Assembly: GCA_963711565.1 (NCBI GenBank)
Contig: CAVQEQ010000001.1
Span: 256,001 to 320,000 of the forward strand
DNA length: 64,000 bases
Direction: 5' to 3'
Origin: an uncultured delta proteobacterium
Lineage (GTDB): Bacteria; Desulfobacterota; Binatia; Binatales; Binataceae
The notes under the pieces are model-generated. The model made no database searches. It saw only the letters and a program-made list of their open reading frames with translations, and was not told where the DNA came from. Shown one piece after another: positions 15,979-21,744 of the stretch; the first letter of the stretch is position 1; every line of letters starts with the position of its first letter. The translations under genes were made by a program, and so were the position numbers.

Positions 15979-16386
15979 ATGAAGAAATTCGCCGCCGGCG
16001 TAATGCTAGGCTTCGTTGCGAGTTGGGCTGTAGCGTTTGCGTCAGCCAACGTGAGCCACAATGGCAGTTTCTGGAACCGTCTCAACGGCGCTGCCAAAGA
16101 CGGCTACGTCAACGGCTATTCAGACGCGATGCGAGTCAGCGTCGGCAAGCTCAACGTCCTCAATTCCGCCGCCGACCTGTTTCACTGGAAGGGCGCCCGC
16201 CGCATCATTCACCAGCTCTCGGGGCAACTCTCGATGGACGACGTGAGTGCGAATCAGGCCGTCAAGCGGCTTGACGATTTGTATGCGAACCAGAAGTACA
16301 GCGAGCTGGATATCGGCGAAGCGTTGCAGACCCTTTCGATTCGTGCGAATGAAACCGCGATGCCCGACGCGCCCGTGAAAAAGTGA
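15979..16386 (+). CDS. Secreted hypothetical protein
   Basis: GGGGAG RBS; MKK-hydrophobic-AFA signal peptide; followed by terminator. Confidence 0.7.
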   Translation: MKKFAAGVMLGFVASWAVAFASANVSHNGSFWNRLNGAAKDGYVNGYSDAMRVSVGKLNVLNSAADLFHWKGARRIIHQLSGQLSMDDVSANQAVKRLDDLYANQKYSELDIGEALQTLSIRANETAMPDAPVKK

Positions 16387-17447: not shown

Positions 17448-18290
17448 ATGAATGAACAAAGATCGCGGCTGCGCGACTTGCTCGCCGGCCCCGAAATGAT
17501 CGTCGCGCCTTTCGTCTTCGATTGCCTCCAGGCAAAACTGGCCGCCGCCGCCGGCTTCGACGCCATCTACATGACCGGCTTCGGCACGGCAGCCGCGCGC
17601 GGCTATCCCGACCTCGGCCTGCTCACGATGTCCGAGATGGCTGCCAACGCGCGCGCGATCTCGCAGTCGGTAAACGTCCCCGTCATCTGCGACGCCGACA
17701 CCGGCTACGGCAATCCGCTCAACGTTTGGCGCACCGTGCGCGAGTACGAAGACGCGGGAGCGTCCGCGCTGCACATCGAGGACCAGGTATTCCCCAAGCG
17801 ATGCGGCTTCCTCGCAGGCAAGCAGGTCATCGCGATGGAAGCGATGGTGCCGAAGGTACGCGCGGCCTGCGACGCCCGCCGCGATAAAAATTTGGTCATC
17901 ATCGCCCGCACCGACGCCCTCGCCGTCAACGGATGGGACGACGTAGTGCGTCGCGCACACTCCTACCGCAACGCAGGCGCCGACTTGATTTTCGTCGATG
18001 GAATCAAAACGGTCGACGACCTCAAGCATTACGCAGAAAAACTCGGCGACCTCCCGCTGATCTACAACGGCGACCTGCTACCCATTGACGAACTGAAAAA
18101 GTACCCCTTCAAGATCACCATCCACATCGGCACGATGCTGACGATCTACGACGCAATCCGCACGGCGATGACCGACCTGAAACGCACCGGCAAACTAAGC
18201 ATCGGCACCAGCGCAAACGTCTTCGAAGACTTCGTCCGCACAATGGGCGTCGCCGGGTACCAAACGCTGGAGAAGAAGTATGTGGACTAA
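17448..18290 (+). CDS. Isocitrate lyase/PEP mutase family (PrpB-like)
   Basis: DADTGYG, HIEDQ..PKRCG, IIARTDA. Confidence 0.9.
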   Translation: MNEQRSRLRDLLAGPEMIVAPFVFDCLQAKLAAAAGFDAIYMTGFGTAAARGYPDLGLLTMSEMAANARAISQSVNVPVICDADTGYGNPLNVWRTVREYEDAGASALHIEDQVFPKRCGFLAGKQVIAMEAMVPKVRAACDARRDKNLVIIARTDALAVNGWDDVVRRAHSYRNAGADLIFVDGIKTVDDLKHYAEKLGDLPLIYNGDLLPIDELKKYPFKITIHIGTMLTIYDAIRTAMTDLKRTGKLSIGTSANVFEDFVRTMGVAGYQTLEKKYVD

Positions 18291-18310: not shown

Positions 18311-18918
18311 TTCCTAACCTCCCCTTGTCCGAGGGGAGGTCGCCGCGCGCCGAAGGAGCGCGGCGGGCGGGGTGCAACGCGGGCCGACTCACAAAACCGA
18401 ATGGTCTAATCGATACCCACGACACCCGCTCCGCTGTCCGCACGGGCGAACCAAATTGAAAACCGTCTCGCTAACCCAACATCGCGCTCGCCAACTGCGT
18501 CACAACCAGACCGATGCCGAAAAGAAACTCTGGGCGCGTCTTCGATCTGGAGGACTTTCCGATCTCCGTTTCCGCAGACAATTCCCAATCGGCAACTTCA
18601 TCGCGGACTTCGCCTGCCCGAAGGCGCGACTGGTCGTCGAGCTGGACGGCGCTCAGCACCTCGACCGCACCGCGCAAGATGCCCGGCGAACAAAGCTGAT
18701 CGAGCAGCATGGCTACAGAGTGATTCGCTTCTGGGACAGCGAAGTGCTCGACAACGTCGCAGGCGTGCTCGAGAGAATCGAGCGGGCTCTTACGGGAGCA
18801 CCCGTAGCATGAAAGGCGATTAAACGAGTCGGGGTTGTGCAATGTCCGGCGCTGCACCTCTCCCGCCGCGCTCCTTCGGCGCACGGCGACCTCCCCTCGG
18901 ACAAGGGGAGGTTACGAA
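18311..18918. mobile_element. Putative DUF559 element bounded by 75-bp inverted repeats
   Basis: 18311-18385 vs reverse complement of 18844-18918: 68/75 identical by manual alignment. Confidence 0.65.
18456..18812 (+). CDS. DUF559 / Vsr-like endonuclease
   Basis: ARQLR..TDAEKKLW, FRRQFPIG, IADF, VELDGAQH, GYRVIRFW. Confidence 0.9.
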   Translation: MKTVSLTQHRARQLRHNQTDAEKKLWARLRSGGLSDLRFRRQFPIGNFIADFACPKARLVVELDGAQHLDRTAQDARRTKLIEQHGYRVIRFWDSEVLDNVAGVLERIERALTGAPVA

Positions 18919-18942: not shown

Positions 18943-21690
18943 CTACACGTCCTTGAACGCCGCCTTCTTCCCCGACGACTCGATCGCCGCCTGCGCTGCC
19001 GCGAGCCGCGCGACCGGAATCCGGTACGGCGAGCACGACACATAATCGAGTCCCAGCCGATGGCACAACTTGACGCTCGACGGATCCCCGCCATGCTCGC
19101 CGCAAATCCCGATCTTCAATTTCTTGTTCGACTTGCGCCCGCGCTCAATCCCGATTCGCATCAGCTCGCCAACTCCGACCGGGTCGAGTTCCGCGAACGG
19201 GTCCTTCTTATAAACGCCGGTGCGAATGTAGTCCGGCAGAAATTTCCCCGAGTCATCGCGCGAGATCCCGTACGTCATCTGCGTCAGATCGTTGGTCCCG
19301 AATGAAAAGAATTCCGCGACCGCACCGATCTGATCCGCCACCACGCATGCGCGCGGCACTTCGATCATCGTGCCGATCGTATACGCGACCTTGATGCCGC
19401 GTTCCTTGAATACCGCGTCCGCCACCTCGCGAATCTGCGCCGCCAGGATGTCGAATTCGCGCCGCTCGCCGATCAGCGGCAGCATTATTTCCGGCATCGC
19501 CTTGACGCCTTGCTTGCGCAGCTCGCACGCCGCCTCGATAATCGCGCGCGCCTGCGCCTGGTAAATTTCGGGGAAGCTGATTCCCAGCCGCGACCCGCGA
19601 TGCCCCAGCATCGGATTCACCTCGAACAGGCTCTCGCGCACCTGCTTCAGATGCTCGAGCGTGGTGCCGATTTTCCCCGCCAGCTCGCGCAGCTCGTTGT
19701 CCGCATGCGGGATAAATTCGTGCAGCGGCGGATCGAGCAACCGAATCGTGACCGGCAGCCCGGCCATTGCTTTCAGGATCCCGACAAAGTCCTCGCGCTG
19801 CATCGGCAGGATCTTCGCCAGCGCGCGCCCGCGCTGCTGCGGGTTCTCTGCCATGATCATTTCGCGCACCGCCGAGATTCGCTCGGGATCGAAAAACATG
19901 TGCTCCGTCCGGCACAGCCCGATTCCTTCGGCGCCGAAGTCGCGCGCGATTTTCGCGTCGTCGGGAGTATCGGCGTTCGCGCGCACCCCAAGCCTGCGCA
20001 CATCGTCCGCCCACGACAGAAATTTTTTGAAGTACGACGGCATCTCCGGCTCGACCGTCGGCACGCGTCCCTCGATCACTTCGCCCGCCGATCCGTCGAG
20101 CGTGAGGTACTCGCCGCGGCGCACGACCGCGCCATTCGCCGACAGCGTGCCAGCGCCATAATCGATCTCCAGCGCCGACACACCAGCCACGCACGACTTG
20201 CCCATCCCGCGCGCCACTACCGCCGCATGACTCGTCATCCCGCCGCGCGCGGTGAGAATTCCCTCGGCCACCTGCATCCCGTGAATATCTTCCGGCAACG
20301 TCTCGAGCCGCACCAAAATTACTTTGCGCCCCGCTTCCGCGACCGCCACTGCTTCGTCCGCCGAGAACACCACTTCGCCGTTGACCGCACCCGGCGACGC
20401 CGGCAGTCCGCGCGCGATGACGTGCTTCTTGCTCGAAGGGTCAAGCCGCGGATGCAAAAACTGCTCGAGCTGCTCCGGTTCCACGCGCTTCAGCGCCGTC
20501 TTGCGATCGATCAGCTTCTCGTCCGCCATATCCACCGCGATTCGCACCGCGGCCTGCGCGGTCCGCTTGCCGTTGCGCGTCTGCAGCATGAACAGGCGAT
20601 TGCGCTCGATCGTAAATTCCATGTCCTGCGTGTCGCGAAAATGCTTTTCGAGCCGCGCCGCGATTTTCAGGAATTGTTTGTAAACGTCGGGGAAGCTTTC
20701 CTCGAGCGTCGAGTACTGCGCGACGCGCTCAGCCTCGGTGATCCCCTGCCGCGCTGCCCACGCGCGCCCCGCCTTCAGACTGATCTGCCGCCCGGTGCGG
20801 GTCCCCGCGACAACGTCCTCGCCCTGTGCGTTCGGCAGAAACTCGCCGTAGATTCCTTTTTCACCGGTGCCGGGATCGCGCGTGAACGCGACGCCAGTGG
20901 CGCAATCGTCGCCAAGATTTCCGAACACCATCGATTGCACCGTGACCGCGGTGCCCCAGTCGCCCGGAATATTGTTGAAGCGCCGATACGCGATCGCGCG
21001 ATCGTTATGCCACGAGTCGAACACCGCACCGATCGCCATCCACAGTTGCTCGCGCGGGTCCTGCGGGATGTCACTGCCGACGCGCGATCGAATCAGTGCG
21101 CGGAACTCGCTCACCAGTTCGCGCAAATCCTCGACGTTCAGGTCAGTGTCATTCTTGACGCCGCGCGCCGCTTTCTTGTGATCGATAATTTCCTCGAACG
21201 GATCCGGATCGTTCTTGTTCTCCGGCTTCAGCTTGAGCACAACGTCGCCGAACATTTGGCAGAAGCGCCGGTACGAGTCCCACGCAAAGCGCGCGTTGCC
21301 GCTTATCGTTTCGAGCCCCTTCACCGTCTCGTCGGTGAGCCCGAGGTTCAGCACCGTGTCCATCATCCCCGGCATCGAAACGCGCGCGCCCGATCGCACC
21401 GACACCAGCAGCGGATTCTTGGCGTCGCCGAACTTGCGCCCGAGCGCCTTCTCGATTCGCGCGACGCTCTTCGCGACACCCTCGGTCAGGCCCTTCGGAT
21501 ATTTGTGCCCGTGATCGTAAAAGTAATTGCAGACCTGCGTCGAGATCGTGAATCCCGGCGGCACCGGCAGCTTGAGCCGCGCCATCTCCGCCAGGTTCGC
21601 GCCCTTGCCGCCCAGCAGGTTGCGCATCTCCGCGCGTCCTTCCGCCACGCCCGCGCCGAAAAAATAAATCTCAGGATGAATCCGAGCCAT
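18943..21690 (-). CDS. ppdK: Pyruvate, phosphate dikinase
   Basis: LLGGKGANLAEM, SVRSGA, GGMTSHAAVVARG, GLCRTEHMF, GTNDLTQ. Confidence 0.97.
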   Translation of the reverse strand: MARIHPEIYFFGAGVAEGRAEMRNLLGGKGANLAEMARLKLPVPPGFTISTQVCNYFYDHGHKYPKGLTEGVAKSVARIEKALGRKFGDAKNPLLVSVRSGARVSMPGMMDTVLNLGLTDETVKGLETISGNARFAWDSYRRFCQMFGDVVLKLKPENKNDPDPFEEIIDHKKAARGVKNDTDLNVEDLRELVSEFRALIRSRVGSDIPQDPREQLWMAIGAVFDSWHNDRAIAYRRFNNIPGDWGTAVTVQSMVFGNLGDDCATGVAFTRDPGTGEKGIYGEFLPNAQGEDVVAGTRTGRQISLKAGRAWAARQGITEAERVAQYSTLEESFPDVYKQFLKIAARLEKHFRDTQDMEFTIERNRLFMLQTRNGKRTAQAAVRIAVDMADEKLIDRKTALKRVEPEQLEQFLHPRLDPSSKKHVIARGLPASPGAVNGEVVFSADEAVAVAEAGRKVILVRLETLPEDIHGMQVAEGILTARGGMTSHAAVVARGMGKSCVAGVSALEIDYGAGTLSANGAVVRRGEYLTLDGSAGEVIEGRVPTVEPEMPSYFKKFLSWADDVRRLGVRANADTPDDAKIARDFGAEGIGLCRTEHMFFDPERISAVREMIMAENPQQRGRALAKILPMQREDFVGILKAMAGLPVTIRLLDPPLHEFIPHADNELRELAGKIGTTLEHLKQVRESLFEVNPMLGHRGSRLGISFPEIYQAQARAIIEAACELRKQGVKAMPEIMLPLIGERREFDILAAQIREVADAVFKERGIKVAYTIGTMIEVPRACVVADQIGAVAEFFSFGTNDLTQMTYGISRDDSGKFLPDYIRTGVYKKDPFAELDPVGVGELMRIGIERGRKSNKKLKIGICGEHGGDPSSVKLCHRLGLDYVSCSPYRIPVARLAAAQAAIESSGKKAAFKDV

Positions 21691-21744
21691 GTCTAATCGT
21701 TGCTCCCTCGCCGCATCGAAACCGTGCGGAGACAATTTTTGATT

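Follow-up and report, generated by a model that had tools for sequence, protein, structure and literature searches.

Results

A DUF559 gene enclosed by structured inverted repeats

The window, a 64,000-nucleotide stretch of the genome of an uncultured delta proteobacterium of the Binataceae (assembly GCA_963711565.1, contig CAVQEQ010000001.1, positions 256,001 to 320,000), contains at 18311-18918 a small gene of the DUF559 family enclosed by two inward-reading repeat arms, the whole unit lying between a PEP-mutase/ICL-family (prpB-like) gene and ppdK, which are convergent. This layout had been proposed in a sequence-only reading of the window and its anatomy was recovered here: 68 of the 75 positions agree between 18311-18385 and 18844-18918 read as its reverse complement, a core of 53 bp that starts at 18315 is the longest stretch with a single mismatch, each arm forms two hairpins when its inward-reading strand is folded, and the enclosed reading frame of about 118 amino acids belongs to DUF559 (Pfam E 8e-40). 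The inverted repeat stretches to 102 nucleotides at 84% (18311-18412 and 18817-18918). The features are the following:

17448..18290, + strand: PEP-mutase/ICL-family (prpB-like) gene, context outside the element
18311..18412 (core 18311-18385), + strand: left arm, TM/BoxC variant reading inward (inverted-repeat alignment, fold, family copies), with an outer TCCTA tail outside hairpin 1
18317-18340, + strand: left arm hairpin 1
18341-18365, + strand: left arm hairpin 2
about 18365-18373, + strand: left arm G-rich third tract, followed by a weaker inner extension
18456..18812, + strand: DUF559 gene, 118 aa, TTG start, predicted Vsr fold (Pfam, structure model, alignment)
18817..18918 (core 18844-18918), - strand: right arm, reading inward (inverted-repeat alignment, fold)
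about 18856-18864, - strand: right arm third tract
18864-18888, - strand: right arm hairpin 2
18889-18912, - strand: right arm hairpin 1
18943..21735, - strand: ppdK, context outside the element

Folded as DNA, the inward-reading strands of the two arms reach z = -3.5 and -3.2, with 1 of 200 shuffles equally good, whereas the opposite strands fold more weakly (z = -2.5 and -1.75). In each arm a G-rich third tract, with one mismatched position, comes after hairpin 2. A search of the element against Rfam returned no match better than E 0.15, a chance match below the gathering score, and a scan for promoters and terminators found none. Elsewhere in the window, a 135-aa reading frame at 15979-16386 is hydrophobic near its N-terminus and matches no Pfam family.

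A variant of the BoxC/triplex motif forms the arms

The repeat itself is not new, since its arms represent a variant form of BoxC/TM, a published motif. Repeats of this type came to light in the 1990s and are found in over 260 genomes, without a known origin; TM_ECO/BoxC consists of a hairpin and a mirrored G tract, is intergenic and forms an inward pair in five cases (PMC4666352). Holder et al. (2015) observed the triplex only in single strands, not in stable form within duplexes or in vivo, and describe TM_ECO as having no link to transposons, phages or plasmids; their main text names no partner enzyme for it and does not mention ycjD (PMC4666352). The arms described here share with BoxC/PIT/TM_ECO the C-rich/G-rich hairpin with a mirrored G-rich tract behind it, the intergenic position, the inward-facing inverted pairs of two arm types and the unstable sites, which vary among relatives, but their second loop is a hairpin-containing insert of 23-31 nt (rarely 55 nt) instead of 3 nt (PMC4666352). 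In the element at 18311-18918 this insert measures 24 nt in both arms. The purine tract mirroring the stem is present in 52 of the 57 arms of the family in this genome, and only 3 of these 52 show the 3-nt second loop of the strict TM_ECO consensus; because the hairpin insert replaces that loop, we regard the arms as a TM variant.

Pairing in hairpin 1 is maintained by two-sided change (T-A in 40 arms, C-G in 16 and one mismatch) and the third tract covaries with the stem. A G appears in the third tract only together with a C-G stem, in 5/16 against 0/29 cases in this genome, where related copies inflate the statistics, and in 6/9 against 0/14 in other genomes, where the copies are likewise related. 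Among 56 homolog loci with asymmetric stems, the third tract fits the stem only as a mirror repeat in 21, only as a direct repeat in 1 and as both in 29, although this mirror signal requires that T be allowed for A (12 versus 11 without it). The DUF559-tied TM families of this genome carry distinct arm sequences.

The enclosed gene encodes a predicted Vsr-fold nuclease

The DUF559 reading frame most likely starts with the TTG at 18456 and comprises 118 aa; relatives G007, G046 and G056 share this start. A longer in-frame GTG frame (146 aa) was rejected, as it is not conserved and the open frames reach 134 aa in G007 and 122 aa in G046. Residues E22, D51, D64, H68 and D75 are invariant across 44 aligned sequences (alignment A1), and the spacing of the first four (E-29-D-13-D-4-H) is that of the catalytic residues listed for Caulobacter VsrA. 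The predicted structure (pLDDT 83.7) matches 3HRL and the catalytic domain of I-Bth0305I in Foldseek searches (the latter with HMM E 5e-5 and Foldseek E 1e-4) and, more weakly, Vsr (1vsr, 1cw0). The gene is predicted to encode a Vsr-fold nuclease with intact putative catalytic residues. It is under purifying selection, with a median dN/dS of 0.09 over the 34 of 55 pairs that are not saturated. The family is large, 11,846 representatives at 50% identity reaching E 1e-10, and this genome alone has eight stand-alone paralogs and a ninth, weak match inside a long reading frame.

Gene-less pairs share the ends of the gene-bearing unit

A motif scan of this genome recovered 57 arm copies, arranged as 25 inward-facing pairs and 7 unpaired arms. 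One pair is the element at 18311-18918; the other 24 are gene-less and have the same ends as the gene-bearing unit. They are 166-256 bp long, compared with 596 bp between hairpin ends for the gene-bearing pair, and 20 of them consist of two expanded arms, while 4 short pairs combine an expanded arm with a near-canonical triplex-motif arm that has a TTA-type second loop. All 25 pairs lie between predicted genes, as delimited by an ad hoc gene caller. Identity among gene-less pairs has a median of 77% and a maximum of 89.7%, which excludes a recent burst, and the genome holds no identical copy of the element.

None of the 24 gene-less pairs contains a coding remnant, so that we rejected their origin as internal deletions of the gene-bearing unit that left such remnants; in 16 of the 24, resemblance to gene-bearing units is confined to the non-coding flanks of the latter. 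Judged from sequence, their interiors are mosaics of non-coding parts. The fixed-length target-site duplication and sharp ends of DDE insertion sequences and MITEs were not found. Outer conservation tails off over about 7 nt across the 25 elements, and the absence of a target duplication, already noticed at this single locus, extends to the whole set: the mean flank match is 4.32 versus 4.26 in shuffled controls, 203 of 500 shuffles score as high, and we discarded a fixed target duplication. Long flanking duplications are likewise absent from all 25 elements in this genome.

Several further observations concern TM-type repeats more generally. A duplication spanning flank DNA was seen, anecdotally, in 2 of 14 other loci, and near-identical direct duplications of 208, 273 and 74 bp lie beside TM-type elements in G050 and G003 (L060:1779-1985 and 2488-2695; L171:2004-2276 and 2301-2573; L057:2027-2100 and 2531-2604), which may have arisen by repair or through faulty assembly. 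At G000:C3:874238 (G000 being this genome), a solo hairpin flanked on either side by an outer tail resembles collapsed forms in G043 and G055. At least three further TM-type families, tied to other DUF559 clades, are present in this genome (examples at C4:441801-442103, C3:393423-393728 and C1:1088554-1088889); one of them, distinguished by a GGGGTTAGGGGTTAGG-like tail, is matched about 82 times.

DUF559 genes are associated with inverted repeats across genomes

The sequence-only reading had made its proposal depend on whether DUF559 homologs are generally flanked by inverted repeats, and the enrichment turned out to be strong. A bracket being defined as an inverted repeat that scores 30 bits or more, brackets enclose each of the 8 stand-alone DUF559 genes of this genome versus 1 of 250 short predicted control genes. 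Several of the 8 paralogs sit in other arm families, which have gene-less copies of their own. A survey of 80 GTDB homolog loci, 72 of them with full flanks, found brackets at 55/72 versus 0/133 shifted windows, with an ad hoc TM pattern and gene caller; the matched control of 250 genes was used because the shifted windows are probably mostly coding DNA. The proportion is 41/58 once 14 Binataceae-type loci, recognised by their record titles, are left out, and the bracket is missing at 17 of the 72. In a separate family draw around a Phenylobacterium record, 26 of 30 DUF559 loci are bracketed. Such bracketing crosses phyla. In E. coli K-12, ycjD is a 52%-identical homolog located about 170 bp from TM no. 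9 of Table 1 in PMC4666352. It has no clean bracket, because the one full TM points outward with respect to ycjD and the inward-facing hairpin has degenerated.

The listings of openly accessible literature that we searched, which for bioRxiv comprised the main texts, yielded no published statement of a link between DUF559 and TM. The nearest printed hint that we found is a single table row in which DUF559 genes are enriched 14-fold among predicted programmed-inversion targets (PMC9881135).

Nuclease clades match repeat families. On a protein tree of 39 rows, a 13-row clade (SH-aLRT 98) carries the hairpin-1 sequence of the present element, no other clade does, and the other clades carry other hairpin sequences; the arm of one clade member, G012, was taken from the 80-locus survey. 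The number of arms also follows the presence of the gene, the 11 genomes that carry the clade's gene having a median of 21 and the other 35 a median of 5 (p = 2.5e-4, among kin that are not independent), and 30 arms or more being present in 5/11 of the former versus 1/35 of the latter. Exceptions exist in both directions: three genomes hold the gene but no more than 5-10 arms, and G057 combines 59 arms with just the 5' half of the element.

These counts bear on the simplest alternative, namely that an abundant gene-end repeat, located after the stop codons of convergent genes, happens to enclose an unrelated small gene. Ten of the 25 elements do lie between convergent genes, versus about 16% expected (p about 0.003), as such a coincidence would have it, but the other 15 inward-facing pairs occupy tandem or divergent contexts, and both arms are kept beside a different left neighbour in G046 and G056 and at other sites. 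The bracket counts in this genome, in the GTDB set and in the family draw largely refute a fortuitous enclosure, which we consider highly improbable.

An old element at variable sites

The junction at the 3' end of ppdK differs among 47 genomes of the genus, which bears out the expectation of the sequence-only reading that the locus is not fixed. Four of them have the whole unit (frameshifted in G056), and G057 keeps its 5' half; these five genomes are scattered on the ppdK tree (5 changes, 36 rows). In other relatives the junction is occupied by other TM-type repeats (at least 10 of 30, classed by eye) or by a spacer of 5-27 bp (five genomes). In G046 and G056, where both arms persist, the prpB-like gene is missing between degP and the element; this gene (17448-18290) is variably inserted between degP and ppdK, and at least 8 relatives lack it. 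In G057 (L037 / L061) the left arm and leader are kept and another reading frame, presumably acetyltransferase-like, replaces the DUF559 gene; the same frame alone fills the junction in G001.

Fourfold-site divergence of the DUF559 gene equals or exceeds that of ppdK, and the element is as old as its flanks at this site. Because the gene's divergence is no lower than that of ppdK, one old insertion followed by repeated loss or replacement fits best, and recent horizontal or homing transfer at this site is unsupported.

The clade's gene occurs in 11 of 46 relatives, two of these copies being broken, and occupies six sites across the genus, the ppdK junction and five more; clade members group largely by site on the protein tree. 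At a second orthologous site, beside a gene that we take to be acs, 31 genomes classed by eye display a range of states: gene-bearing in 2, gene-bearing and inverted in 1, a gene-less pair in 2, a solo hairpin in 2, pairs of other TM families in 11, single TMs in 2, an unrelated repeat in 7 and nothing evident in 4. The gene-less pair of G038 and the solo hairpin of G055 share both flanks, which indicates that site states interconvert. A different repeat family, with palindromic core GGTGCAGGGGTCACCCCTGC, occupies in other relatives both the ppdK junction (L025, L028, L031, L035, L046, L050) and the acs junction (L168, L173, L184, L189, L190, L194), so that these gene ends appear to be hot spots for unrelated repeats.

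Among the listed matches in conspecific metagenome contigs, we found no clean empty allele at the element site, nor in a 17.6-kb region with three gene-less pairs. Contigs in metagenome runs X1 and X2 stop matching the window at 18262, in the last codons of the prpB-like gene, and of these an X1 contig takes up the match again at 18944, across a run of unknown letters.

That one and the same orthologous site holds the gene in part of the relatives and a gene-less form elsewhere could also mean that the DUF559 gene is a passenger, that is, cargo of pairs whose movement depends on replication slippage or on some other enzyme, and that it perhaps homes into gene-less pairs by cutting. Of the characterised enzymes, the closest is indeed a homing endonuclease, I-Bth0305I, and the mosaic, non-coding interiors of the doublets would fit such a role. 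Against it, all 24 gene-less pairs are too short for other cargo, arm copy number tracks the gene, this site gives no sign of recent allelic transfer, and the two HUH (Y1_Tnp) genes of the genome are unlinked to the arms. All in all, we judge a mere passenger role quite unlikely. An HUH transposase was discarded as the mobiliser, both Y1_Tnp genes carrying different repeats with no arm of this family nearby. These RAYT/IS200-like genes (L225:1100-2200, L226:1100-2200; G000:C1:341305, G000:C3:1344719) each seem to lie between short palindromic repeats of their own, which are not related to the TM arms.

The long residence of the gene and the purifying selection acting on it agree as well with a domesticated function, in which the nuclease would serve the cell, by mismatch repair like Vsr or by resolving triplexes or hairpins, the arms would be binding or regulatory sites, and the repeats would spread by host recombination without the nuclease. 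Plasmids and phages seldom carry DUF559 homologs (35 of 72,556 plasmid records, many of them chromosome-sized, and 3 of 50,697 phage records), and deletion of vsrA, a DUF559-domain gene of Caulobacter, removes the SOS response of a methylase mutant, from which its authors hypothesise that VsrA acts in T:G repair (PMC12907096). A host function accounts poorly, however, for eight paralogs in one genome, each within inverted repeats of several families, for a clade so patchily distributed and present at several sites, and for the lack of a methyltransferase among the immediate neighbours, and we hold it to be unlikely.

Discussion

Comparison with known systems

Among the known systems close to this element is RAYT/REPIN, which it resembles in its presumed operation without belonging to it. 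Both have extragenic inverted doublets with conserved arms and a variable spacer (here 24 gene-less pairs and 1 gene-bearing pair), an enzyme gene flanked by its cognate repeats, a match between enzyme clade and repeat, and a long chromosomal residence under purifying selection (10.1101/2021.07.10.451892). The enzyme differs, being here of Vsr fold without the HUH motif or catalytic tyrosine domain of a Y1 transposase, and RAYTs are described as single-copy, non-moving genes, whereas here there are eight paralogs, one clade of which occupies six sites (10.1101/2021.07.10.451892). The analogy drawn in the sequence-only reading stands for anatomy and evolution.

The EDxHD homing endonuclease I-Bth0305I is alike in its Vsr-like catalytic domain with E, D, H and D residues, and its selfish spread by cut-and-repair would match in logic, but the protein described here lacks an N-terminal NUMOD region (118 versus 266 aa), and its gene is intergenic, framed by structured repeats and without an intron or intein host (PMC3239194). 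E. coli Vsr and Caulobacter VsrA resemble it in fold (Foldseek 1vsr, 1cw0), and VsrA, which is proposed to act in T:G repair, has a DUF559 domain, but the immediate neighbours of the present element include no methyltransferase (PMC12907096). The element falls short of the tested defining features of DDE insertion sequences and MITEs, of EDxHD homing endonucleases, of classical Vsr and of the CIR repeats of Caulobacter. In the last of these families, pairs may enclose an ORF. CIR repeats are also intergenic, two-armed and structured, of about 110 bp (PMC2229807), but GANTC, a site conserved in them, is not enriched in our arm family (0.0031 per base versus 0.0052 genome-wide; a site in 14/25 elements), and we rejected CIR membership.

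A nuclease that may spread triplex-motif repeats

Our best reading of the genomic comparisons is a REPIN/RAYT-like system run by a Vsr-fold nuclease, with cutting and mobilisation as its presumed activities. The unit at 18311-18918 would be the gene-bearing member of a two-part system in which the nuclease recognises its own arms and drives rare copying, with gene-less pairs as passengers, an interpretation that we favour by a modest measure. The earlier suggestion of an autonomous element is supported by the presence of the unit at six sites in the genus, but the element is as old as its flanks here and has neither a target duplication nor identical copies.

In such a system, the arms would fold transiently as single-stranded hairpins or triplexes during replication or transcription, and the nuclease may bind the folded arm and nick there. 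For nucleases of the Vsr type, cutting is known but strand joining is not; joining would for that reason fall to host recombination and repair, which would also explain the ragged ends and the lack of a fixed target duplication. Host repair would then copy the pair into new intergenic sites. These sites might subsequently decay, either through inversion between the arms or, where a deletion takes place between the 9-bp stem halves, to a solo hairpin.

Implications

The nuclease is likely to be the enzyme by which the BoxC/triplex motif repeats, long unexplained, are spread. Going further, DUF559 genes and triplex-motif arms might constitute their own class of prokaryotic mobile element, in which a 118-aa Vsr-fold nuclease without strand-transfer chemistry reads three-stranded ends and mobilises both itself and gene-less pairs, providing the missing BoxC/TM enzyme across phyla, with families that coexist and overwrite shared sites; we see the arguments for and against this broader view as evenly balanced. 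What this genome contributes is a matched set of nuclease and arm families, a copy-number association, a mirror test and a range of states at one site. Linking DUF559, a large family with little assigned function, to the BoxC/TM repeats would let a single small protein and short oligonucleotides address both the role of the family and the origin of the repeats, and the several nuclease clades, each with its own arm sequence, offer built-in specificity controls within this genome. Should mobilisation be demonstrated, it would amount to transposition by a route independent of DDE, HUH, tyrosine and serine chemistry as known so far, perhaps with an enzyme able to read triplex DNA, which would be categorically new.
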